DNA of 64,000 nt from a virus. Positions 3,876 to 58,850 of the stretch are shown here, piece after piece. The notes beneath the pieces are model-generated. The model searched no databases. It worked only from the letters and a program-made list of their open reading frames with translations, and was not told where the DNA came from. The position numbers and the translations under genes are program-made. The stretch lies in the IMG/VR virus record IMGVR_UViG_3300035701_000001. One strand, written 5' to 3'. How positions within the stretch are numbered: position 1 is the stretch's first letter; every line of letters begins with the position of its first letter.

Positions 3876-5068
3876 ATGATTTTCCTCATGAGTTTCTTCC
3901 CAAGTTCTATGACTTCTCCCTTGTCATGTCCCTGGTCGAGCCATTGGTCCATCATCTCGGCCACTTCCTGGGGAGATCTTCCATTGAGCGGATTCTGGGA
4001 ACTGGAGGGCTCCGGATCTTCGTAGACGGATTCTTCGTATTCTTCGTCTACGTCTTCTGGAAATTCTCCTTCATCCGGGACAATGTCCTCTTCGGAGGTG
4101 TAGAAACCATCGTATTCTCCCTCGTCGTCATCTTCCGCGAGCGTATACTGGTCGTAGCCGAGATCGGGTTCTGGAGGAGTCTGGTTGACCATGGGCAATG
4201 CCCGTTGGTTCGGTGGGATGGGTAGGGAGGGATTCGAACGGACAGGCATGTTCATCAACTGGTTCACGGCGTTTCCGGCCTGCTGGTTTCCACCCGTCAG
4301 GATTCCTGATTGCATGGTGATTTTCAAGGCTTCGCCGAGGAGGTTCTGCCAGAAGGGCTGGTCCTGTCCCTGCTGTTGATTTTGCATCCAGGGAGGGGCT
4401 GCATTGACACCGCGCATGGCGTTGATGGCCGAGGCGGATGCGGCGATGACGTTGGTCGCCTGGCCGAACATCCGGGACATCATCTCATCCTTGTTCTTGT
4501 TTTCCTCGTAGAGGTGCTGGGTGAAATCATCCATTTCTCCCTTGTGTCCCGCCCCTTTGGAACCGGTGGGCAGGGTTCCGACGGCGACGGCTCCCCGGTA
4601 GCCTCCGAGGTAGGCCTTGTCCTTCTTTCGGACGATGCTCACCTCGATGTTTCCCTCGAAGGGGACGCCGATGGTCGCGCACAGCGATTTCATCAGGGTG
4701 ATGAACCCGCTTTTCCCATAGTCTTTCGTGTTCGGGTCGTAGGGGGAAGGACCGTAGTTTGCCGGGGGGGCGTTGTCGGGCATGACCTTGATGCGAATGA
4801 GCATCCGGTCGAGTTGGATGGGCCACCACTTCGGTTTTTTTCCGGAGACCAGGTCGTTGTAGAGTTCCGAGACATCTTCGATGTCCGGAGCTTCGGGAAG
4901 CCCGTCTTTGGTTCCACTGGCTTCGGCTTCATCGACTGCGTCGTGGTAGCTGGCGATGGCCAGTGCAGAGAGGACGGTTTCGTAGATGCGCTCGACGTCG
5001 ATTTCCTCGAATTCGAGCAGGGATTCCCATCCTCGGGCGGATGTGACGCTGGATTCCTTACGTGGCAT
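3872..5068 (-). CDS. Hypothetical acidic protein
   Basis: 398-aa ORF with strong GC3 codon bias, Q/N-rich middle and D/E-rich C-terminal part. Confidence 0.8.
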   Translation of the reverse strand: MPRKESSVTSARGWESLLEFEEIDVERIYETVLSALAIASYHDAVDEAEASGTKDGLPEAPDIEDVSELYNDLVSGKKPKWWPIQLDRMLIRIKVMPDNAPPANYGPSPYDPNTKDYGKSGFITLMKSLCATIGVPFEGNIEVSIVRKKDKAYLGGYRGAVAVGTLPTGSKGAGHKGEMDDFTQHLYEENKNKDEMMSRMFGQATNVIAASASAINAMRGVNAAPPWMQNQQQGQDQPFWQNLLGEALKITMQSGILTGGNQQAGNAVNQLMNMPVRSNPSLPIPPNQRALPMVNQTPPEPDLGYDQYTLAEDDDEGEYDGFYTSEEDIVPDEGEFPEDVDEEYEESVYEDPEPSSSQNPLNGRSPQEVAEMMDQWLDQGHDKGEVIELGKKLMRKII

Positions 5069-6101
5069 CGGGGAGAGTCTCCTGGGCGTGGGACTGGATG
5101 AGTTCGATGGCTTGTACCGGGGTGATCCAGGTCAGCCCGTGCCGTTCTGCGAATTGTTTGCGAGCTTCGACATCGGGGGGTTCGGCATAGCCGTTGTCGT
5201 AGAGGTTGCACCGGATGGCGGATGAGGCACATCCCATCATGCGGACTCCGTGTTCTTCGAGGTCTTCGAAGATTCCACGGAGCTTGGCACCTGAGGTGGG
5301 GTAGAGGTGTAGATCGTAGTTTCCTGCCGATCCTTCGATGGAGTAGCAGTAGGGGAACGGTTGTTCGACGACTCCCTTCTCATCGAGGGAGAAGTAGTGG
5401 GAGAAGACGTTTCCGAATCGGTTCTTGCGGATGGAGAGTCGTCGGAGTCCGGTCATGTCGTCGGGAATGTCGGCCAGCACGTCGACGAGGTGGCGAAGCT
5501 GGTTGGGTCCGAGAACATCTCCGTCTTTCGTGTACTGGGCGATGAAGATGCCTCGGGCTCGTGCGGCCTGGATCCGGTTGATGGCTGCCTTCATGACGTG
5601 GGTCGATTCCCAGGAGGTTGCAAGCTGGGAGATCGAGTCGACGACGATGAGGTCGTCTTTTTCGAGTCCGATGAGATCTTCTTCGAGTTCTTCCCACGTG
5701 TTGATCATGGAGAAGCGGGGGACGGGTGCCATGGGGTTGTGCTGTCCCACCACGCGGTTCCAGGAGGAGAAGACCATCTGGATCTGTTGTTCGGAGGACA
5801 TGTACCGGGTTGGGTTGGTCTTGAGCGCGATGGTCGTTTTTCCGGAGCCTGCATTTCCAGAGAGCAGGATGGTTCCTCCATGTTCGAGCTTGAGATGGGA
5901 CCAGGGGTGTGGAAGTGCCGGTGGATCTTCCAGGTCTGAGTATTTCCGGTTGGGGCGAGCCCTGCGGCTGTCGAGGTCGTTGTTGTTGCATCTTGGACAG
6001 GTGTGGACTTCTGGATCCAGGATGGGAAGCGTGCAGTTGTAACAGACCCGGTGGGGTTCGATGGCCAGGCTGTTTTGAATTTCGCTCTTATTTCCTTCCA
6101 T
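5058..6101 (-). CDS. radA: RadA/Sms-like ATPase lacking the Lon-like C-terminal domain
   Basis: Zn finger CYNC..CPRC, Walker A SGNAGSGKTT, Walker B LIVVDSISQL, TKDGDVLGPNQLRHLVD, and the RadA signature KNRFG. Confidence 0.85.
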   Translation of the reverse strand: MEGNKSEIQNSLAIEPHRVCYNCTLPILDPEVHTCPRCNNNDLDSRRARPNRKYSDLEDPPALPHPWSHLKLEHGGTILLSGNAGSGKTTIALKTNPTRYMSSEQQIQMVFSSWNRVVGQHNPMAPVPRFSMINTWEELEEDLIGLEKDDLIVVDSISQLATSWESTHVMKAAINRIQAARARGIFIAQYTKDGDVLGPNQLRHLVDVLADIPDDMTGLRRLSIRKNRFGNVFSHYFSLDEKGVVEQPFPYCYSIEGSAGNYDLHLYPTSGAKLRGIFEDLEEHGVRMMGCASSAIRCNLYDNGYAEPPDVEARKQFAERHGLTWITPVQAIELIQSHAQETLPDAT

Positions 6102-6953: not shown

Positions 6954-7754
6954 ATGGAACAGTACGGAGGATTCCTCGGAATCCACACCAACCCGCAGGC
7001 ACGGCTTGCACAGATCGATGGGAAGCTCGCAATCGAACTGTCCAAGCCCTCCGGTGCCCAGCGCACCCAGAAGATCGCCCGCCTCATGGGGCTGCGTGAC
7101 AAGGTGCTCGCGAAGGTCGCCGCCCGCAAGGGCGCCGAACTCGCAGCGGCCTCCATCCCCGGCCTGGCCGGTGGACTGGCCAGCAGCGGCATCCGGGGCA
7201 TGGACGTCATCGAACACGAGTTCTCCCCCGAGGTCGTTCGCCAACACAACCTCGAAGGCGCGGCCCAGGGCCTCCGCCAGATGTCCGTCGCCCCTCCGGG
7301 CTCCGGCCGCCTGGTCCCGATCCCCTTCGTCACGTCCGCGAGCACGGTCCCCGTTCACGTCGTGACGGGTGGCGGTGGTGCGCTCGGTGCCGCAGTGGGC
7401 AACCTGCAGACCGAACCGGTGAACTGGGCGGTGCTTCGCATCGTCGCGCTCACCACGCAGACCATCGCGGCGGCCACGGGCGTCGTCGGCGTCATGCAGG
7501 ACTTCAAGATCGGAGGCAGCCCCAACCTGTTCCTCTCCGAGAACTGGGTCCTGATGGACGACTACGACACCGACAAGGAGCAGTTCGCAGGGCTCCGCGC
7601 GTACCCGGTCCTCATCAGCCCGAACATCGCCTACGTCACGACCAACACGTGGGCCCCAGCGGGTCAGAACCTGTACTACGCCGTCAGCCTCGTGACCGAG
7701 GTTCTCCGCGACGACGCCTTCGGACCGGGCCTTCCCGGCGGATACGCGCGGTAG
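6954..7754 (+). CDS. Candidate major capsid protein (single-jelly-roll-like, beta-rich C-terminal domain)
   Basis: AGAGGAC RBS, extreme codon bias, flanking hairpins; about 140-aa alternating-hydrophobic beta domain; clear paralog at 55866-56645; fold is inferred, not searched. Confidence 0.55.
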   Translation: MEQYGGFLGIHTNPQARLAQIDGKLAIELSKPSGAQRTQKIARLMGLRDKVLAKVAARKGAELAAASIPGLAGGLASSGIRGMDVIEHEFSPEVVRQHNLEGAAQGLRQMSVAPPGSGRLVPIPFVTSASTVPVHVVTGGGGALGAAVGNLQTEPVNWAVLRIVALTTQTIAAATGVVGVMQDFKIGGSPNLFLSENWVLMDDYDTDKEQFAGLRAYPVLISPNIAYVTTNTWAPAGQNLYYAVSLVTEVLRDDAFGPGLPGGYAR

Positions 7755-7903: not shown

Positions 7904-9172
7904 ATGTCGGGAACCAGCGCAGTCAGCAACCAGCATCCACGGTATGGATTCACCGAGCAGAGGATGTATGCGACCCTGCCGGGCAGTGGTCTCTCGAATG
8001 TCAATCCGACCGGGGCATCGTTCGAACGTCCTCCCGGTGTCGGGACCGTGGCCGTCGTCGGAGTTTCGACCGCACTCGCAGGCGGTGCCCAGGTCAACAT
8101 GATCCTGGAAGGGTCGAACGACAACGTGAACTTCCTGGTTCTCGCCCAGCTTGCGGTGGCGGACTCCTTCACGGTGGCCGTTCCCCCTGGTCCCGCAGAG
8201 ACGAAGGTCCTGAACGCGGCGGTCGATCAACAGGTCGATGTCCAGCGGTTTGCCTACCTGCGTGTGCGTACGTTCTCCCCAGGGGGTACCTACGCCATCA
8301 ACGTGGTTGTGACGGGCATCGCGCTCGACTCCGAGAAGTTCATCTATCGGTGGAACTTCGGTCGTCTTGGTCTTACACCGACGTTCCAGAACGGTCTGGT
8401 CTACATCCGTCCGGCTGGAACGAAGTTCACGAACGTCCAGGTTTCTGCGACCATCGTGAACCTGGGGGGCATCCTCGGGTTCAACTTCATCCTGCAGGGA
8501 TGTCCGAACTACGTCGCCGGGTCCCTTGCAAATATCTGGGTGGATCTCTCCTCTGTTTTCGTGAACGGAGTCGGCTCCTACTTCCTGCAGCAGAACGGCA
8601 CCACGGAGATGGATCTCGGGAGCTACACGCACTTCCGGGTGCGTGTGATCGACGATCCGACCAATCCTCCGGGACCTCTCACGGCGTACATTGCCAGTGT
8701 CTACCTCACACTCGACTCGATGGACTGGGTCGATTCCCAGGAAGCGGCGAGTGGAGGAGGGGGTGGGGGAGGTATCGCAGACAACGCTCTGCTGAACGCG
8801 ACATTCGGGGCACCGGGTCCCGAGGTCGGCAACACCATCCCGGTCGACCTCTACCTGCTCGATGTCGCGGGAAATCCGCTTCCGGGGTCTCGCCGGGTCG
8901 AATGCCTCCTATACGATACTCCGAATGCGGGGGACCTCGATCTCGCGACGAACGCGGTGTTCTCGGCGGTCGGAGGCGGGGCTGTCGCCATCAGTGGCAT
9001 CGGCACGAACCGGGTCGTTCTCACGACGGACGCAACGGGGCATGCCATCCTCTCGGTTCTCGATGCAGCCGTCGAGTGGGTCTACCTCACGGCGGTCACG
9101 CCCAAGGGGCCCCTCACGGACCCGACCATCGTCTACAAGTCGCAGCAGTCGGCGCTGCAGTTCGTGCCGTGA
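7904..9172 (+). CDS. Putative spike/receptor-binding protein (beta-sandwich repeats plus Ig-like domain)
   Basis: Beta-rich; repeated ILEGSNDNVNF / ILQGCPN motifs; SGGGGGG linker; C-terminal VDLYLLDVAGNPLPG..TTDATGHAILSV resembles bacterial Ig-like (Big) domains. Confidence 0.6.
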   Translation: MSGTSAVSNQHPRYGFTEQRMYATLPGSGLSNVNPTGASFERPPGVGTVAVVGVSTALAGGAQVNMILEGSNDNVNFLVLAQLAVADSFTVAVPPGPAETKVLNAAVDQQVDVQRFAYLRVRTFSPGGTYAINVVVTGIALDSEKFIYRWNFGRLGLTPTFQNGLVYIRPAGTKFTNVQVSATIVNLGGILGFNFILQGCPNYVAGSLANIWVDLSSVFVNGVGSYFLQQNGTTEMDLGSYTHFRVRVIDDPTNPPGPLTAYIASVYLTLDSMDWVDSQEAASGGGGGGGIADNALLNATFGAPGPEVGNTIPVDLYLLDVAGNPLPGSRRVECLLYDTPNAGDLDLATNAVFSAVGGGAVAISGIGTNRVVLTTDATGHAILSVLDAAVEWVYLTAVTPKGPLTDPTIVYKSQQSALQFVP

Positions 9173-9207: not shown

Positions 9208-10338
9208 ATGATCCATCCGTATTTCAACCTCACGGGCGACGAGGCCAGGGGGCTGTTGTACGGGCTGCTCGAAGTGGACAAGATCCAGTTGAAGGCGAAT
9301 CCTTCGATGCCTTCGATCCGGAAGTTGATTCAGGAAGGCAGTATTCGTTACGAGCGGTCGGATCCTCAGGAACACTGGCAGTCCTACCGGGAACTCGTCG
9401 AACAGGTCCAGCAGGGCGGGGTCGGGTACGGGGATTGCGAGGACTTCGCCCCGGCAATTGCAGCCGAGGATCAGGTTCGACGTGGATTGAAATCAATTCC
9501 TGTGGCGTATACCCCTAAAGAAGGACTGTTTCACGTGGTGACAGCGGTTCCGACTTCGGGGGCGTCCTATGGAGTCACCCGGTTTCCAGACGCCCTCGGG
9601 GCTCCCAGGATGTCTGGGTATGTCCTCGAAGATCCTTCGGCAGCCGCAGGGATGGAAACCTTTGGGAGTACCGGGGTTCGTGGCAAGTCGGTGGGAGAGG
9701 CGAGGGAGCGGTTTGGTGGGATGCGGGAATTCCGGGAATTTTACGGAATAAAGGATGGTTCTTCCAAGTACACTCCTTCTCGTATCCTGGTCGAATCCGC
9801 GATGGGGCTTGCCGCCATCGAGGCGGAGGACTTTGGAAGGGCCGAGGAACTGGCCCGGAAGGTCTCCTCGATGCTCCGTGACATCCGAAAGCGCATGCCA
9901 GGCTATGACATCGATCCGGATACGCAGGAATTGCTGGAATGGTACGCCGATTTGTCGAGGGGTGAGGACACGGGGTACGAAGTCGAGTTTCCCGAGGATT
10001 CTGGTTTTGGAGCGATGGACAGGGGGGGAGAAACCCTGCGGGTGGATGCCGAATACCGGGATCGGTTGCGTCGACTGGGGGGGCAGGGGACCTGGTCTAC
10101 ACCCGTTGTCTCGATGTACTTTCGGGTTCGCAGGACAGTCCGTATCGGGCAGGGGTGTTTGATCCCCTCGTCTCTCTTGGACTTCCCTGTTCGTTCCGTG
10201 AAACCGGCTCCGAGTTCTATCGAGGAATTCGCTGGTTGTTACGGTTCTCTTTCGCTGTTTGGAGATCCGTTGCGGGACATCGAGGAACTCGATGACCTGG
10301 AACTCATGGATGAACCTGGAGTTTTTGAAGAGGATTGA
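9208..10338 (+). CDS. Transglutaminase-fold cysteine protease, candidate virion maturation protease
   Basis: GDCEDFA (Cys), FHVVTAV (His), LEDPS (Asp) in papain-like triad order; sits inside the structural cluster. Confidence 0.7.
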   Translation: MIHPYFNLTGDEARGLLYGLLEVDKIQLKANPSMPSIRKLIQEGSIRYERSDPQEHWQSYRELVEQVQQGGVGYGDCEDFAPAIAAEDQVRRGLKSIPVAYTPKEGLFHVVTAVPTSGASYGVTRFPDALGAPRMSGYVLEDPSAAAGMETFGSTGVRGKSVGEARERFGGMREFREFYGIKDGSSKYTPSRILVESAMGLAAIEAEDFGRAEELARKVSSMLRDIRKRMPGYDIDPDTQELLEWYADLSRGEDTGYEVEFPEDSGFGAMDRGGETLRVDAEYRDRLRRLGGQGTWSTPVVSMYFRVRRTVRIGQGCLIPSSLLDFPVRSVKPAPSSIEEFAGCYGSLSLFGDPLRDIEELDDLELMDEPGVFEED

Positions 10339-10412
10339 ATTAGAATCGAGGAGAGGTCCGGGTGCCGGAAATGGGTGGCCGGACTATGTTTCCCCCTGGA
10401 GGACATCTGACC

Positions 10413-12758
10413 ATGTACGGAGCATCGGACATCTACAACTCTCCCCTGTCTCGCAAGGAAATGTTCGGGGTCGAGGGTGGCATCTTCGTGGGAGGGATCA
10501 AGTCCAGGAAGGCACGGATCGAGCGTCTCTGTGACAAGATCAAGGGCTTCGTTTCGAAGACCGATCCGGATGCAGGGCCTGCGAACCTCAACGTGAAGAA
10601 GGTCACGAAGTGGGCAGGCAAGATCTCCAAGCACGTCGGAAAGGTGCTTGAAAAGGAATCGTCCTGGAAGGTTTCTCCGACGGTTCAAGCCATCCTCGAC
10701 TTCAGCAACTCGAAGGACTTCGAACAGCTTCACCAGGACCTCGGATTCTCGGTGGGTGGGGCTCGTTCTGCGGCGGAAGATGTCTCCGAGGCGGGGGAGT
10801 ACGCTCCCGAGGAAGATACCTACCAGGACATCGAGCGCAGTGCCTGGGAGGATCCCTACTCCATGGCCGAGTATGGCCCAGAAGGAGGGTATACCACTCC
10901 CGAGGGGACCTACGTGGCTCAGGGCTTCCCGACCGCCTCGCAGTACTACGAGCAGTACCCCTCCGCGTTCCAGACGGGTCCCTCCTACCCGTCTCCGCTC
11001 TACCCGCGCTGGAACCGGTGGGCGGAACGGCATCCGCACAAGGCCTATGCATTGACCCATCCGCATCGAGCGGCTCGCCAGGCGGCTCGTCATGCGGCTC
11101 GGCAGTCGGCCTATACCTATCGTCCCACCACGCACGCGATGCCGATGCGGAGGGCGGGTCCGATCTCTCGCGGAGCCGGACTCCGGGGAGCCGGACGTCG
11201 GTTCGGTGGAGTCGAGGGGGCGATCTACGCAGGTGTGGGCGATGCTTTCGATCGGGTGGACCTCTTCGGAAAGAAAGACACTCGTAGCCACGATGAAATC
11301 TGGCGCGAATTTGCGGCAAAGAACCCGAGGAAGGCACTCAAGATGTTGGAAGACATTCGTCAACGTGGGGAAGGATCTGCAGAATCGCGTCGTGAAAGAG
11401 GGCGTGTCTTTGACTTGTGGGCCTCTCGTCATCCGAAGAAGGCACACAAGTACATGATGAAGATGAAGGAAGAAGCAAGGGAAAGATCAGAGGAACGGGA
11501 AGGGTTTTCCGGTTTCTTGGATGAGTCCATCTATGCGGGGGTGGGCGATGCGATGGATCGCCAGGACCTGTTCGGTGGACTGCAGCGCACCGATCTGTTC
11601 GGTGGACTGCAGCGCACCGATCTCTTCGGTTCGGCCACGGGCATGGATCCGACCATTGGGCTCGGATCGTTCATGCCCATTCGCGAGAACCAGAGCCTCG
11701 ACCGGCTCGACACGCTCTTCGAGGACTTCGAGGAGTCGGACGAGGATGCGGCTCTCCTGGACCTCGACCTGGATGACGAGTCTGGGGAACTGGAAGAGGT
11801 GGGCTTCCGCCCTGGTCGTGGCAGGCGGGGACCCGGTCGCATGGCCCGTATGGAATCTCGTCAGCAGCACAAGCTCGGCAGGGCTCAGCTTCTCCGTGAG
11901 AAGGCAGCCGCCATGGCGGCCACCCATCCGCGCCGGGCGGCTCGGCTGAATTGGCTCGCGGATCTGGCCGAGAAGCGCGCAGGGCGGATCGAACAGCACC
12001 AGCAGCAGATCGAATCTCGCAGAGGTACGGCGGCCTACGGGGCCCTGACCTTCTGGCAGCAGCACGAAGCGGCTCGTACCGACCAGATCGAGGCGGCTCT
12101 GCAGGCAGCGGATCCCGCTTCCCTCGATTCCATCAGCGCGCTCGTCGAGCACTACTACAACAACACGAATGATCCGGACGACCGGGTCCAGCGCAAGATG
12201 GACAAGCTGGCCGAGAAGATCATGGGCCGGCTCGGGGCCACCTGGCAGCCGATGGATTACGAGACCCAGACGGCGTTCAACACGGGAGCTTCTGCCTTCG
12301 AGGCGGCGACCAGCGATGTCGAGCACCTGGCTTCCTACGGTTTCCTCGCCCGTGACGTCGCCCGTCGTCTGACCCGTCTGCAGCGTGAGTACGCCCAGGT
12401 TCGCCGGGCGGGTGGCAAGAACGCGGAAGAGAAGGCCGAGAAGATCCTCGGGGAGATCGCGGTTCTCTCGAAGCGCATCGAGGCCTTGAAGGCCATGCCG
12501 AACGTCGGGGTGATGGGGCAGGAGTCCAGTGCTCCCTATGCTCCCATGCGGACGCCCGAGGAATTGGGCGATGGATCCCAGGCCGAGCCCAGGGCTTCGT
12601 ATGCGCCGACGGACGAGGAGATCTCCAGGGCCATTCAGCCGAGGAAGGTACTTCCCTTCGGTGTGGGCGAGGATGTTCCGGACGATCCCGAGGTGGATCA
12701 GTTGGAAGAAGACGAGGATTGGGATGATCTCAACGTGTCCAGCCTCGGTGGTGACTAG
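10413..12758 (+). CDS. Large modular virion protein / candidate core polyprotein
   Basis: GGAGGAC RBS; MYG start; alternating basic and acidic modules; internal repeats; strong codon bias. Confidence 0.8.
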   Translation: MYGASDIYNSPLSRKEMFGVEGGIFVGGIKSRKARIERLCDKIKGFVSKTDPDAGPANLNVKKVTKWAGKISKHVGKVLEKESSWKVSPTVQAILDFSNSKDFEQLHQDLGFSVGGARSAAEDVSEAGEYAPEEDTYQDIERSAWEDPYSMAEYGPEGGYTTPEGTYVAQGFPTASQYYEQYPSAFQTGPSYPSPLYPRWNRWAERHPHKAYALTHPHRAARQAARHAARQSAYTYRPTTHAMPMRRAGPISRGAGLRGAGRRFGGVEGAIYAGVGDAFDRVDLFGKKDTRSHDEIWREFAAKNPRKALKMLEDIRQRGEGSAESRRERGRVFDLWASRHPKKAHKYMMKMKEEARERSEEREGFSGFLDESIYAGVGDAMDRQDLFGGLQRTDLFGGLQRTDLFGSATGMDPTIGLGSFMPIRENQSLDRLDTLFEDFEESDEDAALLDLDLDDESGELEEVGFRPGRGRRGPGRMARMESRQQHKLGRAQLLREKAAAMAATHPRRAARLNWLADLAEKRAGRIEQHQQQIESRRGTAAYGALTFWQQHEAARTDQIEAALQAADPASLDSISALVEHYYNNTNDPDDRVQRKMDKLAEKIMGRLGATWQPMDYETQTAFNTGASAFEAATSDVEHLASYGFLARDVARRLTRLQREYAQVRRAGGKNAEEKAEKILGEIAVLSKRIEALKAMPNVGVMGQESSAPYAPMRTPEELGDGSQAEPRASYAPTDEEISRAIQPRKVLPFGVGEDVPDDPEVDQLEEDEDWDDLNVSSLGGD
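11565..11630 (+). repeat. 27-bp in-frame tandem repeat (DLFGGLQRT x2 + DLFG)
   Basis: GA(C/T)CTGTTCGGTGGACTGCAGCGCACC at 11565-11591 and 11592-11618, partial third copy. Confidence 0.95.
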
Positions 12759-12761
12759 ACC

Positions 12762-12998
12762 ATGAACGGAGCGATCCGCTGCGTGGATGCCCACGGCAAC
12801 CCGATGGACTTCTGTCCGGTCGGGGTGCCAGGGGCTGCAGGGGATCGCTCCGGGGTCCGTCCCGGTTTCACCACGTTTGGTGGCTATTCTCCTGACCCTC
12901 TCCGGGATCGTGGGTACGAGTACAACAAGGCCGGGTATCTGCAGGGTAGCTACGATTCCTGGCGTGCACAGTTCCAGCGGTGGAGAAACCCACGATGA
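12762..12998 (+). CDS. Small hypothetical protein of the structural cluster
   Basis: 78 aa; fills the gap between coupled neighbours; ATGA overlap with the next gene. Confidence 0.65.
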   Translation: MNGAIRCVDAHGNPMDFCPVGVPGAAGDRSGVRPGFTTFGGYSPDPLRDRGYEYNKAGYLQGSYDSWRAQFQRWRNPR

Positions 12999-14473
12999 GC
13001 CCGAAGCTTGACGATGTAGATGAGTTCGACATCTCGAAGGAAACCCTGTACGTAGGGGATCCAGACGAGAGCGAAGACGAGGACGAAGAGGAAGACAAGG
13101 ACAAAGCCTTGCTGGAAGCTTTGTTCAGTGATTCCTCTGACCCTTCGGCTGACGATTCCTTGGACGAGGAGATCGACTCTGCCCTGTCGGACGAGTCCCC
13201 TACACAGAGACTGTGGGAGTTTCCGGACGAATCCCTCAACGTTCAATCATTTGAACACCAGGAGACCCGCAAGCCCAAGGTGAGTCGCCGTGCATTTGCT
13301 TCCGATGCTCGCCGTTCGATGGACGTTTCCCATGAGGAATCCTATGGGCTCGGCTACGAGTCGGGCTACGTGCAGGCCCTGAAGGATATGGGCGTCGAAG
13401 GGGATACCCTATGGGATGCCTACGGCGGACTCGTGAAGAAGGGCATCCAGGGAGCAGGTGGTATCTTCTCCTCGGCAGCCCGTGGGTTCCTCGGGACCAC
13501 TCCCAAGGAAGCTGCGAAGGAACTTCGTGGAGAAGTCGGCAAGGAACTCCAGGGACAGATCCGCAAGCAACTCGGTGTGGCTGGCAAGCCGACCCAGATG
13601 GCCGAAGAATTGGGCAAGCAGTTGCGCCAGCAGGCCCTTGGGGTTGTCGAGGCGGATGAGTCGACACTTCCCCCCGTGTACGTGGAGGACAAGGAGGGGT
13701 TCGAGGAGGACCTGGCACTCGATGAAGGGTCCGAACCCATCGAACTGGACGACAGCCTTCTGGTCCAGGAAGAGTTCGGGGCGACGGCGAAGCACGGGTT
13801 CTTTGCGAGTCAGCCCCGGCATCGCATCCGGGAAGCTGCGAAGAAAGCGATGATCGGTGGGCAGGCATCTCTCAAGACGGCCACTCCGTCGGGTCCTGCT
13901 CCTTTCGTCGAGGATCCCGAGGCGGCTCCGAAGCTCTACTCGACCGGTCGGATCGTGGATGCGGTCTACGGGGAGATGAGCCTGGTCCCGTGTCCGTCCT
14001 GCAGCCGGATCCCCGAGAAGTTTGCTGGGATGGGCAAAGCCGAGAACTGTCTGGTCTGCACGCAGTACGGGGCCATCCTGATTCCGAAGTCCGACATCAG
14101 CCACTACGTGGCTTCGACGAGCTACGGTATCTTGCCTTTGCTCGTGGCAGCGGTTTCCTCAGCCACCCCGAAGATCATGGAACAGGCTTCGAAGGGAAAG
14201 CTTTTCCCGAAGGCCATGGCCAAGCTGAAGACCTGGCTGTCCGGCAAGAAGGCCAAGACCGAGGCACTTCCCTCTGATTCCAGTATCGATCTCGATCTGG
14301 ACAAGGAGAGCGAGGAAGAGTCCGAGACGGATCCCTATGACATCTCTGGAGTCGAAGAGATGTTCGGTGGAGTCGAGGAAGAACCAGAAGAGGACGTCGA
14401 GGAACAGGATCTTCCGGAGGAGTATGGGGTCGTCCGTGCTCTCGTTCCGAGTCGGTACCGGTTCAACCGGTAG
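12995..14473 (+). CDS. Acidic modular virion protein with CxxC..CxxC and a pX-like peptide
   Basis: D/E-rich ends; eight [YF]G sites; CPSC..CLVC; SYGILPLLVAAVSS. Confidence 0.8.
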   Translation: MSPKLDDVDEFDISKETLYVGDPDESEDEDEEEDKDKALLEALFSDSSDPSADDSLDEEIDSALSDESPTQRLWEFPDESLNVQSFEHQETRKPKVSRRAFASDARRSMDVSHEESYGLGYESGYVQALKDMGVEGDTLWDAYGGLVKKGIQGAGGIFSSAARGFLGTTPKEAAKELRGEVGKELQGQIRKQLGVAGKPTQMAEELGKQLRQQALGVVEADESTLPPVYVEDKEGFEEDLALDEGSEPIELDDSLLVQEEFGATAKHGFFASQPRHRIREAAKKAMIGGQASLKTATPSGPAPFVEDPEAAPKLYSTGRIVDAVYGEMSLVPCPSCSRIPEKFAGMGKAENCLVCTQYGAILIPKSDISHYVASTSYGILPLLVAAVSSATPKIMEQASKGKLFPKAMAKLKTWLSGKKAKTEALPSDSSIDLDLDKESEEESETDPYDISGVEEMFGGVEEEPEEDVEEQDLPEEYGVVRALVPSRYRFNR

Positions 14474-24051: not shown

Positions 24052-24939
24052 ATGCGGTTGCGATTTGCTGTGCTGGAGACGGGTTCCATCCCGTGCTGGG
24101 CGTCTGCCTGTGTCTGGAAGGGTGTCGAGTCCGTGAGTCTTTCTCACGTCGATATCCTGTCCGGGCCCAAGGTCCAGTCTGCCCTGTCCACGCTTTCTGG
24201 AGCCCTCGACGTCTTGCTCGTCGATGTCCGCAATGGGCTTGGATTTTCGACTGTGGCAAGTTGGACGCATCTGCTCCGTAGGACGCAACCCCGTCATCTC
24301 CTCGTCTTTGCAGCAACAGAAGGCGATGGGGCGGACCAGGGTCGTTTTCTCGTGAACTGGCTGGATGGACGGGAGCATCTGCACCTCAAGAAGACCGAGG
24401 TATCCCTCCTGGAATCCTTTGGCGCTCCGTTGATCGGACGGATGGTGGTTTCCCTGTTCTCTCAGGTCATTGGAACGGGTTCTTTGGAGTTTCCGCAGCC
24501 CGTGACGGGGTTTTCGAGGGGTTCTCCTTACATCCCATGGAGTACTTCTAGGTACCGTGGGTTGGGCAGTCCGATCTCCAGGGACAGCCTGGCGGTCATC
24601 GACTGGAACCTTGCTTCCTTCCTCGGAGGTCCCCAGTTCGTTCTTCCGGGATACCCCTTTGCACTTCCCGCTCAAGCACCCCGTATCCGTGATGTCGAGT
24701 ACGAGGGATTCGGAATGCTCTGCCATTCGGTGGATGCTCCGTCTTCCTTCGTCGTTCTCTCCATCTCTGACTTGTTGCATCTCCTCGGCTATCCGGGATC
24801 GCTGTTGGACGAGCATCCCGTCGATCTGCAGTGGGGCTTGCTCAAAACCCTTCTCCCTGCTTCCTTCTCCGACCATTGGTTGGGGTGGGCACAGGAGAAC
24901 CTCGGGTCTGTCGAAGACCCTTCAACCCAGACCGAATAA
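24052..24939 (+). CDS. Hypothetical protein, possibly a degenerate C5 DNA methyltransferase
   Basis: GGGGAGG RBS; LLRRTQPRHLLV and LSISDLLHLLGYPG resemble MTase motifs VI and IX; no catalytic PC. Confidence 0.55.
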   Translation: MRLRFAVLETGSIPCWASACVWKGVESVSLSHVDILSGPKVQSALSTLSGALDVLLVDVRNGLGFSTVASWTHLLRRTQPRHLLVFAATEGDGADQGRFLVNWLDGREHLHLKKTEVSLLESFGAPLIGRMVVSLFSQVIGTGSLEFPQPVTGFSRGSPYIPWSTSRYRGLGSPISRDSLAVIDWNLASFLGGPQFVLPGYPFALPAQAPRIRDVEYEGFGMLCHSVDAPSSFVVLSISDLLHLLGYPGSLLDEHPVDLQWGLLKTLLPASFSDHWLGWAQENLGSVEDPSTQTE

Positions 24940-24965
24940 ACGCCGACAGGCAAAAGGAATCTGCT

Positions 24966-25967
24966 ATGCCGAAAGCCGAGAAGAACATCGAGACGACCGA
25001 GGTCAAGGAGCCCGTCGAGGTCAAGGAACCCGTCGAGGTCCAGGACAACGACATGTTCGGGATCGACGTCGAGGTTTCCGACCCCGCGTTCGGAAGCATC
25101 TACCCCATCGTCCAGTGGGTCAACGGGGATCGCACGAAGAAGAAGTCCGAGGACATCGACTACACGGGTGGCTTCTTCGTCTCCGCCGAGCAGGGCATCG
25201 AGATCCCCGGCGCGCACCCCTACAAGCTCATGACCCAGGAAGGCCAGGAGGTCGATGGGTTCGCGATCCGCGATCTCGTCCTCCACCCCCTGCGCTACCG
25301 CCGGTCCTGGATCTGCCTGCCCAAGGAAGGTGGGCTGCAGATGCGCTTCCCGTGGGATGCCTACGAGGATGCCAAGGAACACGACTGCAAGAACTCGCCG
25401 CGTGGACGCGGTCAGCTTCTCGCGGTCATCGAAGGCATGAACCAGCCCGTCTGCCTGACGTTCTCGGGCATGGTCTCCGCCCACGTCTTCTCCCGTGGCA
25501 AGGACCGGGGCGTGCTCTCCAACTACGGCCAGGTCATCGTCGGCAGGGCGCGGGCACTGGCCCGCCGCAAGGGACGCGACATCGAGTACCCGCTCTGCGC
25601 GTTCAAGCTCTCCATGGGCCCCGAGCGCAACGCGGAAGGTCCGGTCTTCACGAAGGTCGGCCAGGGCACCGCGACCAACTACGTCGTCTACCCGGTGTGG
25701 CTCGACAAGCCCGCTGGCATCCCCGGCGAGGACCACATCGGTCGCCTGTTCGCGGGTCGCGAACTCTTCGCGAAGCTCCAGGACTGGCACCGCGAGGCGG
25801 ACGAGTGGGTCGCGCAGTGGTCGACCAAGGCGCTGATCGAGCAGCTCAAGACCTTCCTCACCAACAAGTCCAGCCTGGCCGAGAGCCTCAAGGGCATGGG
25901 CACGAGCGAAGGCGAGACGGCGGCCGAGGGCGAGGGCCTTCCGGGCGAGCGCGAGGTCCCGTTCTAG
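24966..25967 (+). CDS. Putative single-stranded DNA-binding / recombination protein
   Basis: AAGGA RBS; extreme codon bias; acidic C-tail ending EREVPF like bacterial SSB (DIPF); next to nrdJ. Confidence 0.55.
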   Translation: MPKAEKNIETTEVKEPVEVKEPVEVQDNDMFGIDVEVSDPAFGSIYPIVQWVNGDRTKKKSEDIDYTGGFFVSAEQGIEIPGAHPYKLMTQEGQEVDGFAIRDLVLHPLRYRRSWICLPKEGGLQMRFPWDAYEDAKEHDCKNSPRGRGQLLAVIEGMNQPVCLTFSGMVSAHVFSRGKDRGVLSNYGQVIVGRARALARRKGRDIEYPLCAFKLSMGPERNAEGPVFTKVGQGTATNYVVYPVWLDKPAGIPGEDHIGRLFAGRELFAKLQDWHREADEWVAQWSTKALIEQLKTFLTNKSSLAESLKGMGTSEGETAAEGEGLPGEREVPF

Positions 25968-25998
25968 TCCGGTTCCGACCTCATGTCGGTTCCAAGTG

Positions 25999-26033
25999 CG
26001 GGCGGGGGAGCCAGGTGTTTCCCCCGCCCGTTT
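25999..26033 (+). terminator. Rho-independent terminator-like hairpin
   Basis: CGGGCGGGGGAG-loop-TTCCCCCGCCCG (12 bp) followed by TTT, 30 nt after the stop. Confidence 0.7.
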
Positions 26034-26068
26034 CGTCTGTCGAATCGGGTTTCTGGCAGGGGGATGAG

Positions 26069-29000
26069 ATGTCGAAGAAGAACGGAGAGTTCCATGTCGA
26101 ACGGGTTTTCACGGAGGGACTCTCGGATCCGTACCAGGGGATTGACTTCGAACAGCGGGATTCGATCATCCGTCAGCCGAATGGAGATGTCGTCTTTAAG
26201 ATGAGGGGAATCTGGGTACCGACGCACTGGAGTCCGGATGCAACCCGTATGCTCATCCAGAAGTACCTTCGCAAGGCCGGAGTCCCCTCCGATACGGTCC
26301 GTGTGGAGGAATCCGGGGTTCCTGTCTGGTTGCAGCGGTCTGTTCCCGCTGCAGGTGCGGAATTGGGGTTCGAGAAGAGCCTGAAGGACGTCTTTCACCG
26401 GATGGCAGGGTGTTGGACGTACTGGATCTGGAAGAGCGGCTTGTTCGATTCCGAGTCTTCGGCACGGGTCTTCTACGAGGAAATCGTGCGGATGCTCGTA
26501 TTCCAGGTCGCTGCACCGAATTCTCCCCAGTGGTTCAACACCGGGCTTCATTGGGCTTATGGGCTCATGGGTCCTGCGCAGGGGCACTACCACGTTCCCA
26601 TTCCGGGAGGTCCTGCGGTGGCTTCCACGAATGCCTACGAACACCCCCAGGTTCATGCCTGCTACATCCAGGCATGCCAGGACGAACTCGTGGGGCCGGG
26701 TGGGATCATGGATCTGTGGGTGCGGGAAGCTCGCCTGTTCAAGTACGGGTCCGGCACGGGGACGAACTTTTCTCGCCTGAGGGGGCAGGGGGAAAAGCTA
26801 TCGGGAGGCGGTGCCAGTTCAGGGCTCATGTCGTGGTTGGCCATCGGGGATCGCGCAGCGGCTGCCGTGCAGTCGGGGGGAACGACCCGTCGAGCCGCGA
26901 AGATGGTCCTCGTGGACGTGGATCATCCGGACATCCTGGATTTCATCCACTGGAAGGTCGAGGAGGAGCACAAGGTTGCCTCTCTGGTGGTGGGATCCCA
27001 TGTACTGGACGTTTCGCTCTCGGCTGTCGTCTCAGCCTGTTGGCCCGAAGGATCAGAAACTCCCTCTCTGGTTCTCTCGGAGAACAAGGCCTTGCGCCGT
27101 GCGATCCGCAAGGCGCGTGAGGCAGGGGTTCCCGAGGCTCGCATCATCCGGGAACTGGATCTCGTCCGGATGGGGAACCAGGAGTACAACGATTCGGTCT
27201 ACAACACGTCCTGGGAAGGAGTCGCCTACCAGACGGTCGGTGGACAACAGGCCAACAACAGCGTTCGTGTGACGGACAAGTTCCTTCGTGCGGTGAAGGA
27301 GGATCAGGATTGGTCTCTTCTCCGCCGGACGGACGGGAGTGTCTCTCGGACCTTGCCTGCCCGTGAAGTCTGGGCGGCCATCGTGGATGCCGCATGGTGC
27401 TGTGGAGATCCGGCGTTGCAGTACCATGATACCACGAACGCCTGGCATACCTGTCGCAATGACGGAGAGATCGTCGCGTCCAATCCCTGCAGTGAATACC
27501 TGTTCTTCGAGGAGACAGCCTGCAATCTCGCTTCGTTGAACCTGGTTTATTTTATAGATTGGACAAATCCGTCTCGTCCGTTCCTGATGGCTCGTTACCT
27601 GCAAGCCATCCTGCTCTGGACGGTGGTGCTCGATGTTTCGGTCACGATGTCCCAGCTTCCTTCCCAGGCGATAGCGGAGGGAACAGACCGGTACCGGACA
27701 CTTGGGCTCGGATATGCGAATCTCGGTGCCTTTCTCATGAGAAACGGGATTCCCTACGACAGCGAGCGGGGGCGCTGCGTGGCTGCAGCCCTCACCTCGC
27801 TGCTCACCGGGGAGGCCTACCGGACCTCCGCGATGCTTGCTGGAATTCTGGATCCTTTTCCCCGGTATCCCGAGAATCGGACCTCGATGGAGAAGGTCAT
27901 TCATCAGCACGTGGACGTCTGTGATCGGTGGATGGCGGGACTGGAATCCTATGCTCCCCTCGAACGAGGAATCTGGTCTGAAGCACATTTTCAGTGGGAG
28001 AACGCCAAGAAACTCGGAAGGTTGTTCGGATATCGCAATGCCCAGGTGACATGCCTGGCTCCCACGGGGACCATCTCCTTCGTGATGGACTGCGACACCA
28101 CGGGATGTGAGCCGGACTATTCTCTCGTGAAGTTCAAGAGTCTCGCAGGGGGAGGCTATCTCGGGCTCGTGAATCACTCCGTGCGTCTCGCGTTCGAGAC
28201 CCTCGGGTATTCGGCTGAGGTGATCTCTCGGATGATCACTGCGTTGCTCGGAACTCGGAAGATCCAGGGGGATTGGCTTTCCAGCCTGGTCGGTAAAGGG
28301 TTCACCCCCGAGATGATCGACCGGGTCGAAAGGGATCTCCCCACGAGCTACCATGTCTCTTTCGCCGTGACTCCTGAGATCGTTGGTAAAAAAGAGTGCA
28401 CCGAGTACCTTGGTATTCCGCAGAATGAGATAGGGACGGAGGATGTGACTCTTCTTGGAACCGGGCTCCTTTCTCGCCTTGGTTTTTCCTCGACGGAGAT
28501 CGAGGCGTTCAACACCGAGGTCTGTGGGTGCAAGTCCATGGAGTTCGTCTCCGAACTGTCCCCCGAACATCTGCCGGTTTTCGACTGTGCCAGTCGTTCG
28601 GGGTTGGGGACGAGGACGCTTTCCGTGATGGGACATCTTCTCATGATGGAAGTCCTTCAGCCGTTCCTCTCCGGTGGCATCAGCAAGACCGTGAATCTTC
28701 CCCGTGATGCGACGAGAGAGACGGTGGCGGAGGTCTATGCGTGGGCCTGGGAGCATGGGCTCAAGTCCATCGCGATCTACCGGGACGGGTCCAAGTTGTC
28801 CCAGCCGCTTTCCAGTGGTCTTGTGGAACGGATGCTGGATGCGGGATCCGAGGACGAGATGTCGAAGGAGAAGACGGTCGAGGAGGTCGTGCGGGTCGCG
28901 GAGAAGATCTCGGTCCGTTACCTCGCGAAGCGTCGTCGTCTGCCCTATCGTAGGCGTGGATACACCCAGAAGGTCACCATCCAGAACCAGAAGCTCTTTT

Positions 29001-29578
29001 TGCACACGGGGGAGTACGAGGACGAGAATCTGGGGGAGATCTTCATCACCACGAACAAGGAGGGTGCAACGGTCGGCGCGTTGATGAACGCGTTCTGTGT
29101 GGCCATCTCCATCGGGTTGCAGCACGGGGTTCCGTTGGAACGGTTCGTCAACCTCTTCTGTTTCTGGAAGTTCGATCCCCAGGGTCCTGTGAAGGGAGAT
29201 GATCGCATCAAGATGTGCACGAGTCTGATCGACTACGTGTTCCGGCATCTGGCAGTTCATTACCTGGGCCGGGACGATCTGGCCCACGTAAGTTCCGAGG
29301 ATGCACTCGTGGCTTCTGTCGAAGAGGAACCCGAGTGGGAAGAGGAGGAGATTCAGGAAGTCCAGGAGGCTCCTCTTTCCGTGAATGTAGGGACGGCTCC
29401 GACGCAGACCGTTTCCAAGAACAAGGCAGGGGCTTCTCCTCCGAAAAATGAAACGGATGTGACCCAGGAGATGGGATACACGGGAGAGATGTGTCCTTTG
29501 TGCGGTCACTCGACGCTCGTCCGGGAAGGCCCCTGTGTGAAGTGCCGTACCTGCGGGGCCAATCCTGGATGTTCCTGA
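26069..29578 (+). CDS. nrdJ: Class II (B12-dependent) ribonucleotide reductase with C-terminal TSCPD and Zn-ribbon
   Basis: SPQWFN, PQVHACYI, GSGTGTNFS, SGGTTRRAAKM, NPCSEY, ACNLASLN, APTGTIS, SGGISKTVN; C-terminal CPLCG..CRTCG..CS. Confidence 0.95.
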   Translation: MSKKNGEFHVERVFTEGLSDPYQGIDFEQRDSIIRQPNGDVVFKMRGIWVPTHWSPDATRMLIQKYLRKAGVPSDTVRVEESGVPVWLQRSVPAAGAELGFEKSLKDVFHRMAGCWTYWIWKSGLFDSESSARVFYEEIVRMLVFQVAAPNSPQWFNTGLHWAYGLMGPAQGHYHVPIPGGPAVASTNAYEHPQVHACYIQACQDELVGPGGIMDLWVREARLFKYGSGTGTNFSRLRGQGEKLSGGGASSGLMSWLAIGDRAAAAVQSGGTTRRAAKMVLVDVDHPDILDFIHWKVEEEHKVASLVVGSHVLDVSLSAVVSACWPEGSETPSLVLSENKALRRAIRKAREAGVPEARIIRELDLVRMGNQEYNDSVYNTSWEGVAYQTVGGQQANNSVRVTDKFLRAVKEDQDWSLLRRTDGSVSRTLPAREVWAAIVDAAWCCGDPALQYHDTTNAWHTCRNDGEIVASNPCSEYLFFEETACNLASLNLVYFIDWTNPSRPFLMARYLQAILLWTVVLDVSVTMSQLPSQAIAEGTDRYRTLGLGYANLGAFLMRNGIPYDSERGRCVAAALTSLLTGEAYRTSAMLAGILDPFPRYPENRTSMEKVIHQHVDVCDRWMAGLESYAPLERGIWSEAHFQWENAKKLGRLFGYRNAQVTCLAPTGTISFVMDCDTTGCEPDYSLVKFKSLAGGGYLGLVNHSVRLAFETLGYSAEVISRMITALLGTRKIQGDWLSSLVGKGFTPEMIDRVERDLPTSYHVSFAVTPEIVGKKECTEYLGIPQNEIGTEDVTLLGTGLLSRLGFSSTEIEAFNTEVCGCKSMEFVSELSPEHLPVFDCASRSGLGTRTLSVMGHLLMMEVLQPFLSGGISKTVNLPRDATRETVAEVYAWAWEHGLKSIAIYRDGSKLSQPLSSGLVERMLDAGSEDEMSKEKTVEEVVRVAEKISVRYLAKRRRLPYRRRGYTQKVTIQNQKLFLHTGEYEDENLGEIFITTNKEGATVGALMNAFCVAISIGLQHGVPLERFVNLFCFWKFDPQGPVKGDDRIKMCTSLIDYVFRHLAVHYLGRDDLAHVSSEDALVASVEEEPEWEEEEIQEVQEAPLSVNVGTAPTQTVSKNKAGASPPKNETDVTQEMGYTGEMCPLCGHSTLVREGPCVKCRTCGANPGCS

Positions 29579-55865: not shown

Positions 55866-56645
55866 ATGTCAGAACCAGGTTCGGGCTCGGTGCGGGGGTT
55901 GTTTCGTCAGTGGGCTCGGAAGATGCTCGGTACGGTGGTGAACGAAACCATCGATCGATTGCTCGAAGTGAGCGTGGAACTCGGTGAATCCGATGGGTCT
56001 CTCGCAGAGGGAGACGAAGGAGATCTGGATCTCGACGGATCCATGGAACAGGACGAGGCATCGAACCGACTTGTGCCTCGGTCTCCTCCTTTCGCGTTGC
56101 GCCGTTTGCCCCCCAAGGGGGAACGTTGGACTCCTCCTGTCGAAGGGGAGAAGCGTGAGTTCCGGTTTCTTCCTTTCTGCATCGAAGGCGGAGAGGAGAA
56201 CGTCCCTCTCGCTGGATGTGGAACCGAAGAGGTCCAGATTCAGTCCATGACATTGCGCTGTGCAAACCTTCCGACGGGCTGGATCCAGATCGTTGGATTC
56301 CGTGCTCTTCTTTCCTCGGATCCGACCGTCAAGGCCTTCGTGAAGGCGCTGCGTGTCGGAACGGAGGGGGACTCCCTTTTCCTCGCAAAAGGGTGGACGG
56401 ATCTCTCGGAGTTCGTCCGCAACCCGAACGGGATCGAGGGCCTTCCTCGGCTGCGTCGGTTCCCGACTCTCTATGTGAAGGACGGAGTCGTATCGGGGGG
56501 AGGCAATTTCGATGCGGTCTATGTGGATGCCTTCGCGTGGGGAGAAGGCCAGGCGCTGTGTCGCATGGATCTCGTCGTGGAGATCTTGGATTCGTCCATC
56601 GAGTCGGAGCCGCCTTTGCCTTCTTGGGAAGGAGAGAACCTGTAG
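55866..56645 (+). CDS. Divergent paralog of the capsid candidate (second jelly-roll-like protein)
   Basis: GGAGG RBS; C-terminal 150 aa align colinearly by eye with 6954-7754. Confidence 0.7.
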   Translation: MSEPGSGSVRGLFRQWARKMLGTVVNETIDRLLEVSVELGESDGSLAEGDEGDLDLDGSMEQDEASNRLVPRSPPFALRRLPPKGERWTPPVEGEKREFRFLPFCIEGGEENVPLAGCGTEEVQIQSMTLRCANLPTGWIQIVGFRALLSSDPTVKAFVKALRVGTEGDSLFLAKGWTDLSEFVRNPNGIEGLPRLRRFPTLYVKDGVVSGGGNFDAVYVDAFAWGEGQALCRMDLVVEILDSSIESEPPLPSWEGENL

Positions 56646-56652
56646 TTCTCGA

Positions 56653-57252
56653 TCATCTCCTCTGGAAGGTCTCGTGGACAGCCACCTGTGCGACCCGGTC
56701 CATCCAGCCGTAGGCCTCGGATACTTCGGATTCGAGAGAGGACAGCCCTGCTTCTTCTGAGGATTCCTCGGCAGTCGTCACCTCGGACTCCAGTCCTTCG
56801 AGGTCATCGGTCTCGGTTCCTTGTTCGGAGGCCGTCACCTCGGACTCCAGTCCTTCGAAATCCGAAAAGTCCAGGTCGGCTTCTTCGTCGGTCCCTGTAC
56901 TGGGAGAGGGAGTTCCCGTGGGCCTCGTGAGGGAGGTTCCCGGATGGGAGGGGCCAGGTGGTGTCGAACGACCTTTGCTCGGATCTTTTCCATGGAGGTC
57001 GTGCTTCTTCTTTTTCTTCTTTTTCTTGTCTTCCTTTTTCTTGATCCCGAGCAGGCTGCGCGCTCCTTCCTGGGCTTTTTCACGCCCTTCTTTCGTACTC
57101 AGGACGGCTGCTGCGATGGGAATCAGGAGAGGGAGGAATCCGTAGCCCTCGTCGGTCATCTGCTGAGTCACTTGTTCCGCGATGGCTCTGGAATCTGGCC
57201 GTTCGGGCAGGTTGTAGAGCGTCGAATAGCCGTATTTCCAGAGTCTGGGCAT
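56653..57252 (-). CDS. Putative virion protein with pX-like peptide, poly-Lys tract and acidic repeats
   Basis: AGAGGACACC RBS identical to gene 15694; GYGFLPLLIPIAAAVL; KKKEDKKKKKKKK; EGLESEVT repeats. Confidence 0.8.
   Translation of the reverse strand: MPRLWKYGYSTLYNLPERPDSRAIAEQVTQQMTDEGYGFLPLLIPIAAAVLSTKEGREKAQEGARSLLGIKKKEDKKKKKKKKHDLHGKDPSKGRSTPPGPSHPGTSLTRPTGTPSPSTGTDEEADLDFSDFEGLESEVTASEQGTETDDLEGLESEVTTAEESSEEAGLSSLESEVSEAYGWMDRVAQVAVHETFQRR
56777..56858 (-). repeat. 25-bp direct repeat, period 57 (EGLESEVT)
   Basis: GTCACCTCGGACTCCAGTCCTTCGA at 56777-56801 and 56834-56858. Confidence 0.9.
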
Positions 57253-57274
57253 GGTGTCCTCTCTTCTTGGGAAT

Positions 57275-58171: not shown

Positions 58172-58220
58172 GCGGAACGCTCCAGTGAGGTTAGAGTATC
58201 CCGTAGAGGAGGGTCTCTCC

Positions 58221-58835: not shown

Positions 58836-58850
58836 GGTGAGGAGCCTTTC

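Follow-up and report, generated by a model that had tools for sequence, protein, structure and literature searches.

The stretch of DNA analysed here, 64,000 nucleotides of the virus record IMGVR_UViG_3300035701_000001 and hereafter called the window, carries a gene for a 497-residue ORFan protein in which a Tyr-Gly pair is directly followed by a short hydrophobic peptide. A first-pass annotation of the letters had placed this peptide at 14123-14161, likened it to the adenovirus pX peptide and numbered it copy 1. Reading the codons confirmed the peptide, as 14123-14161 on the forward strand (TAC GGT ATC TTG CCT TTG CTC GTG GCA GCG GTT TCC TCA) encodes Y382 G383 I L P L L V A A V S S in frame with the open reading frame at 12980-14473 (+), and a six-frame motif scan of the window returned one close second copy, hereafter copy 2. 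Judging from homology, the gene of the 497-residue protein is real, since five homologues were found by word search and 46 cluster representatives by profile search. The features of the two copies are the following.

12980-14473, forward strand: copy 1 gene, encoding the 497-residue ORFan protein P0002 (open reading frame call and homologues; ATG 12995 is a possible true start)
13991-14059, forward strand: four invariant cysteines, C338, C341, C357 and C360 (CPSC...CxVC), of a zinc-ribbon-like core directly upstream of the motif (invariant columns in the 43-sequence alignment A2)
14123-14128, forward strand: Y382-G383, a conserved [YF]G that could be P2-P1 of a processing site (conservation of G383 at least 90%)
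14129-14170, forward strand: ILPLLVAAVSSATP, a short hydrophobic stretch of 14 uncharged residues, 384-397 (insertion energy of the best 19-residue window, +4.8 kcal/mol)
14171-14257, forward strand: Lys-rich stretch, residues 398-426 (9 Lys in 29 residues), with a recurrent KLFPK...LK.WL motif
14258-14422, forward strand: acidic low-complexity linker, residues 427-481, with a further EEMFG site
14423-14470, forward strand: second conserved site EEYG (Y482-G483; context PEEYG), then a conserved 14-residue C-terminal tail VVRALVPSRYRFNR (R486, L488 and P490 invariant in alignment A1; P490 at least 90% conserved in A2)
56653-57252, reverse strand: copy 2 gene, 199 residues, P0052, with EGYG, FLPLLIPIAAAVLS, a poly-Lys stretch, acidic repeats, EAYG and a 17-residue tail
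57097-57144, reverse strand: copy 2 motif, Y37-G38 followed by FLPLLIPIAAAVLS (YGFLPLLIPIAAAVLS; insertion energy +7.0 kcal/mol)

The family of the 497-residue protein was defined as the 46 cluster representatives recovered at E <= 1e-10 in the profile search, and conservation was read from alignment A2. In 38 of the 43 aligned members a [YF]G stood immediately ahead of the hydrophobic stretch, while P0033 and P0037 lacked both the stretch and the YG. The site reads T-S-Y-G|I in the window protein, and family-wide P2 is Y or F and P3 mostly S or R. The exact letters ILPLL were not kept: of 42 distinct members, 9 began the stretch with xxPLL and 19 had a Pro somewhere from +3 to +5, and the residues after the Gly read ILPLL, LLPLV, IAPLV, FLPLL, IIPLL, AVLLSLL, VVGATLAV and others. 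Conservation thus held for the [YF]G and the stretch and failed for ILPLL itself. The composition of the stretch was fusion-peptide-like in P0030, P0018 and P0038, and the mean net charge of the family changed from -2.7 in the 25 residues before the stretch to +2.7 in the 25 after it. The basic part had been described as Lys-rich and amphipathic; it is Lys-rich, and its amphipathicity was only moderate, with a best helical hydrophobic moment of 0.40 as compared with 0.18 for shuffles (p 0.009) in an 18-residue window that spans the hydrophobic-to-polar border. Besides copy 2, a peptide with the same type of start (Gly, two hydrophobic residues, P-L-L) was observed at other places, namely at a further conserved [YF]G site of the family in P0006 (DEAFG-ILPLVMLLG) and P0015 (EVFG-IAPLVVAAV), and at the N-termini of P0112, P0114 and P0115, distant relatives of a capsid candidate described below (AEFG-FWPLLLAPLLKK). 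Taken together, the hydrophobic peptide after [YF]G is a conserved element that recurs in virion-cluster proteins, unrelated ones included.

The family had no match in Pfam, PHROG or PDB sequences and no relatives among the INPHARED phages, and a metagenome pattern scan returned two loci only. The tail that follows the last [YF]G is conserved family-wide and short (14423-14470 in copy 1; 56653-56712 on the reverse strand in copy 2), reads VxRALVP around the conserved P490 and could be a docking or cofactor peptide. The KLFPK element of the Lys-rich stretch was found repeated in the polyprotein of locus L001 as well.

Copy 2 has the layout of the C-terminal third of the 497-residue protein. Its start ATG is preceded by GAGGAC, and it was called as a gene on further contigs of the same virus. 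BLASTP found no overall likeness between the copy 1 and copy 2 proteins, and a search of the protein collection with copy 2 returned the self-match only. Since the two motifs use different synonymous codons, they are not a DNA repeat, and the likeness is confined to the protein level. Around copy 2 lies a second small cluster (55866-59600), in which a 259-residue open reading frame (55866-56645, forward strand) resembled the capsid candidate weakly but colinearly (BLASTP E 0.038), and the genes at 58221-58835 and 58851-59600 encode N-termini with LAEAYG and LQEVYG.

The 497-residue protein gene belongs to a conserved, co-oriented cluster that was also present in loci L001, L002, L004, L007, L008 and L009. 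In the window, three further genes of this cluster bear on the [YF]G pair.

6954-7754, forward strand: 266-residue jelly-roll-like structural protein, the capsid candidate, highly conserved, with an N-terminal E-x-YG
9208-10338, forward strand: candidate processing enzyme with a predicted Cys-His-Asp transglutaminase-fold domain at residues ~1-155 and a [YF]G-rich tail
10362-12758, forward strand: [YF]G-rich polyprotein-like gene, which five of six related genomes have as a fusion with the enzyme domain

Across 76 cluster proteins from seven genomes, [YF]G occurred 382 times, while 177 occurrences were expected from composition (2.2-fold). The full motif was [DE]-x-[YF]-G followed by a small and then a hydrophobic residue, with an acidic P4 in 40% of sites (2.8x), avoidance of Pro at P3, a small P1' and a hydrophobic P2', mostly Leu, in 47% (1.9x). 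In the disordered or acidic proteins of the window, the counts were 10, 11, 8 and 6 as compared with 3.5, 5.2, 2.4 and 1.8 expected, and copy 2 had 3 as compared with 0.8, while the beta-rich proteins, the ribonucleotide reductase and ThyX showed no enrichment. The pair was also concentrated at N-termini: 49 of the 76 cluster proteins carried it within the first 35 residues, as compared with 3 of 34 control open reading frames (Fisher p 2.6e-8), and two of these three control hits were genes adjoining copy 2. Among 33 sequences of the capsid-candidate family, most had E-x-[YF]G at positions 4-10. A short motif that is common to non-homologous virion-cluster proteins above expectation and concentrated near their N-termini, as found here, is what the substrates of a maturation protease present. 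As a separate observation, the beta-rich 422-residue protein encoded at 7904-9172 (forward strand) has three paralogues in L002 (1500-5713), and all share an N-terminal HP-x-[YF]G-[FW] (NQHPRYGF, NKHPLFGW).

The enzyme that would read such sites may be encoded in the same cluster. The domain at 9208-10338 contains DCED (Cys77), LFHVV (His109) and DPSA (Asp142), all invariant in six genomes, and was modelled with a pLDDT of 74.9 and a pTM of 0.72. Almost all structure matches of the model were transglutaminase-fold proteins, weak but uniform (Foldseek E ~1e-2; VIA Z 5-6.4), and they included 3isr, a putative cysteine protease, as well as LapG, TgpA, CPR-C4, PeiP/PeiW and animal transglutaminases; its structural look-alikes in the ESM Atlas carry PF01841. 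The model thus supports a transglutaminase fold for this domain. A complex prediction of the enzyme domain with family residues 366-425 scored 0.01, which weighs neither way. As to the neighbouring polyprotein, its orthologues begin MYG-x-x-D-[IV]-Y, so the window protein probably starts at ATG 10413, which encodes MYG, and not at GTG 10362.

Based on these patterns, we tentatively favour the reading that [YF]G is a processing or recognition site ahead of a short membrane- or capsid-binding peptide that cleavage would expose, and assign to it a probability of about 0.42. The parts of copy 1 and copy 2 form a conserved cassette in the order [YF]G, short Pro/Ala/Gly-rich hydrophobic helix, Lys-rich stretch, acidic linker, second [YF]G and short conserved tail. 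The [DE]-x-[YF]-G motif would be the maturation-processing site read by the transglutaminase-fold Cys-His-Asp enzyme of the cluster; a cut after G383 would generate a new hydrophobic N-terminus, ILPLL..., joined to the basic stretch, and G38 would be the equivalent site in copy 2. The partner of this new end could be a lipid surface or else a hydrophobic pocket in the shell, and the basic part could face DNA. Cleavage, the enzyme responsible and the binding partner of the released peptide are what we infer; the motif with its conservation, its recurrence, its enrichment and its N-terminal bias is what was observed. The proposal of the first-pass annotation that the peptide is exposed by cleavage and membrane-active is thus plausible in its first half, given the 2.2-fold enrichment, the N-terminal bias and the enzyme candidate.

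Several observations weigh against this reading. DnaE, an unrelated enzyme, was enriched in [YF]G as well (13 as compared with 5.0 expected), so the enrichment by itself is not specific. Y330-G331 and Y363-G364 sit within the zinc-ribbon core of the 497-residue protein and are probably structural. In the polyprotein orthologues the MYG lies at the extreme N-terminus, where P3-P1 only are present, and other sites form tandem arrays at intervals of 8-9 residues, up to ~10 of them in the acidic tail of P0032; both features would suit a multivalent docking or cohesive motif equally well. The enzyme domain had no Pfam match, its structure matches were middling (Z <= 6.4; Foldseek E ~1e-2), and the predicted fold is compatible with cross-linking or isopeptidase activity as well as with a protease. 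Finally, the 266-residue protein is no more than a capsid candidate, and an Atlas shape search with it returned only unnamed proteins labelled tailed-phage.

Processing of this general kind has precedents. The prohead protease gp21 of phage T4 cuts at L/I-x-E sites and degrades the acidic scaffold gp22 into many small pieces; as proposed here, one short motif is shared by most T4 head proteins, N-terminal propeptides are removed and an acidic scaffold is cut, while the motif and the protease class are different, and the capsid of T4, which is a tailed phage, has the HK97 fold. Cleavage-exposed membrane-active peptides include adenovirus protein VI and the gamma peptide of nodaviruses, and fusion peptides rich in Ala and Gly are of related composition. 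The stretch described here resembles them as a moderately hydrophobic, Ala/Gly/Pro-rich segment that would become N-terminal if cut; the setting differs from that of those non-enveloped viruses in that the host, judging from DnaE, ThyX, HicA and a Shine-Dalgarno leader, is a prokaryote. In the staphylococcal phage 80alpha, the capsid and scaffolding proteins are processed near their N-termini at F|A by the cysteine protease Prp (PMC5744158). Both systems have a short aromatic-small motif near the N-termini of non-homologous virion proteins; Prp is a host enzyme of another fold acting at one site per protein, while in the present cluster [YF]G with an acidic P4 recurs many times per protein and the candidate enzyme is virus-encoded.

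The main alternative is that the stretch is not cut at all and acts as a membrane anchor, marginally spanning or in-plane, in an internal viral or a host membrane, with the Tyr-Gly at the lipid interface, the Lys flank obeying the positive-inside rule and the YG unrelated to processing. We evaluated insertion energies over the best 19-residue window with a position-independent scale after Hessa 2005, so that they are approximate. The family median was +5.9 kcal/mol and only 1 of 43 members fell below 2, while three of four neighbouring tail-anchored proteins gave 0.4, 1.3 and -0.3 kcal/mol, and the fourth 6.1. The median uncharged run in the family was 13 residues. A canonical tail anchor or membrane-spanning helix has about 18 or more hydrophobic residues and inserts favourably; the stretch was rejected as one, since for the most part it lacks the length and is too polar. 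A marginal anchor has points in its favour: the net charge switches from -2.7 ahead of the stretch to +2.7 behind it, 12 of 43 members had insertion energies below 4 with several stretches reaching 18-24 residues, and the conserved canonical tail-anchored proteins of the cluster indicate that a membrane is involved somewhere. Nevertheless, the short median length, the high median energy and the values of the two window copies (+4.8 and +7.0) argue against it, as does P0112, which has only 11 hydrophobic residues ahead of KK. With the basic flank inside, moreover, the large acidic zinc-ribbon N-terminal part would have to cross the membrane, and the many [YF]G sites that lack a following hydrophobic stretch would be left unexplained. 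An uncleaved anchor is therefore doubtful.

Less probable still is that [YF]G acts as an uncut, multivalent 'sticker' in disordered acidic regions, scaffold-like or similar to FG repeats, which would bind the shell protein or other copies of itself, the stretch after G383 being a protein-protein contact. This explanation accounts well for the tandem, tightly spaced motifs of the acidic disordered tails (DLFGGLQRT occurs three times in the window polyprotein, in addition to the ~10 sites in the P0032 tail) and for the motif at residues 2-3 of the polyprotein orthologues, and the extended P4-P2' preference would suit any recognition motif. It does not predict that a Cys-His-Asp enzyme should be fused to the richest carrier of the motif, and the strong N-terminal bias resembles the removal of propeptides. 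Nor are many sites in an acidic protein foreign to proteolysis, as multiply cut acidic scaffolds such as T4 gp22, cut by gp21, are known. A docking or cohesive role of an uncut motif thus seems to us improbable.

We next considered the relationship to adenovirus pX that the first-pass annotation had put forward as deep homology or convergence. The pX sites follow the adenain consensus (M/I/L)xGG|x or (M/I/L)xGx|G. The pX peptide of HAdV-5 is MRGGILPLLIPLIAAAIGAVPGIASVALQAQRH (PMC9583333), its precursor pre-Mu is cut into fragments 1-31, 32-50 and 51-79, and the Gly before the peptide is P1 of a site of the viral cysteine protease (PMC7998265). The membrane activity that had been attributed to the C-terminal fragment is not backed by PMC7998265, in which the conserved C-terminal region of pre-Mu alters E2 protein accumulation and nothing further is reported for the C-terminal part.

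The two systems share a Gly with [IF]LPLLIP.[IV]AA directly behind it, and P0038 is strikingly pX-like (SYG-FLPLLIPLVAAGAPLVAGGIGAG). The best local scores against pX were 56 for P0038, 52 for P0007 and 50 for P0032 and copy 2, as compared with 32 +/- 4 for shuffled pX, and none of 1000 composition-matched shuffles scored as high, showing that the likeness is order-specific. The match covered 12-19 low-complexity residues at 24-26 bits (E 5e-4 to 3e-3 by BLASTP against a database of 18,566 residues). The first-pass annotation had in effect set these stretches against all viral proteins familiar to it, a space that by a rough estimate exceeds this database by some four orders of magnitude, so that chance alone should yield matches as good; scaled roughly to all well-known viral proteins, at least 10 are expected. 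BLASTP detected no likeness between pX and the family outside the hydrophobic stretch. In addition, pX derives from an Arg-rich core protein precursor of about 80 residues with two sites, whereas the carriers here are an acidic 497-residue zinc-ribbon protein and a 199-residue protein; the basic part lies before the Gly in pX and after the peptide in the window proteins; the sites read (M/I/L)xGG in pX and [SR]-[YF]-G here, which does not fit the adenain consensus; and the enzyme candidate has a predicted transglutaminase fold, differing from that of the adenovirus protease. A helix rich in Leu and Ile may naturally begin with Gly, two hydrophobic residues and P-L-L, as Gly is a helix cap and the first turn of a helix favours Pro. 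Descent of this stretch and the pre-Mu C-terminal peptide from one ancestor has in its favour the order-specific G-[IF]-LPLLIPL-[IV]-AA of P0038, P0007 and copy 2 and the start directly after Gly; set against the shortness of the alignment, the majority of family members without the pX wording, the differences in part order, site and enzyme fold and the lack of relatives of the 497-residue and capsid-candidate families in the viral contig collection, it is hardly credible. Convergence on a generic helix start, or coincidence, is the best reading of the likeness; shared ancestry is unsupported, and the claim of kinship with adenovirus pX should be dropped.

Three other identities were rejected. 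Type IV prepilins carry a class III signal made of a short basic leader, G|F, a hydrophobic helix and Glu at +5, while the motif studied here lies at residue 383 of 497, or after an acidic 38-residue leader in copy 2, and has Pro at +3 and no Glu at +5. A rhomboid-type site was ruled out by position and by the wording of the site, and an N-myristoylated Gly was rejected because the host is a prokaryote.

The carriers of the cluster are an uncultured clade of very large phage-like elements with contigs of 100-385 kb. The capsid candidate had 64 homologues at 28-79% identity on contigs of up to 385 kb, and the longest contig with proteins of the window measured 204,502 bases. The beta domain of the capsid candidate gave weak matches to single-jelly-roll capsid proteins, namely the tymovirus coat (E 3.5e-3) and SPMV, SPV1 and HHIV-2 (Z 6.5-6.7). 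A pattern scan found no relatives of the capsid-candidate family among IMG/VR viral contigs or GTDB representative genomes, so the clade was found in neither collection, and a literature search for a described group of huge jelly-roll phages returned nothing relevant. The window also encodes DnaE, a class II ribonucleotide reductase, ThyX and a Sak4/RecA-like ATPase.

Some features of the clade stand apart from the [YF]G motif. The Walker-type ATPase at 5058-6101 (reverse strand) had a Sak4-like PHROG match (E 1e-7) and faint KaiC and AAA_24 matches, and could be either a packaging or a recombination ATPase; a size-matched divergent gene adjoins the structural cluster in L001, L007, L008 and L009, with a faint KaiC-type ATPase match in L001 and L009 only, and a DUF726 gene lies past the ATPase in L007 and L008. 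The ribonucleotide reductase open reading frame (24557-29578, forward strand) encodes 1673 residues, and its family matches start only near residue 511-542; it may have a long N-terminal extension or a miscalled start, and an insertion is also possible. Two contigs, of 231,512 and 106,390 bases, carry the structural cluster within a few kb of an end (L008:1-16436; L009:1-13441), a position that may mark the terminus of the genome.

The wider novelty lies in this virus clade and its [YF]G motif. In its boldest form, the proposal is that of a new clade of very large (100-385 kb) bacterial viruses whose virion proteins share a [DE]-x-[YF]-G 'processing code', read by a cysteine protease of transglutaminase fold that the viruses themselves encode, and in which cuts at two or more sites release short hydrophobic-plus-basic peptides that act on membranes, for entry or for anchoring an internal membrane. 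We regard this full version as a long shot; if true, a prokaryotic virus with a jelly-roll-like shell protein would have arrived independently at the maturation logic of adenoviruses. If [YF]G is a processing site, as we tentatively favour, the hydrophobic-plus-basic peptides would be candidates for membrane anchoring or penetration in a prokaryotic virus, and the motif would predict the mature ends of the proteins that carry it and would help to recognise the virion proteins of these widespread huge phage-like elements.

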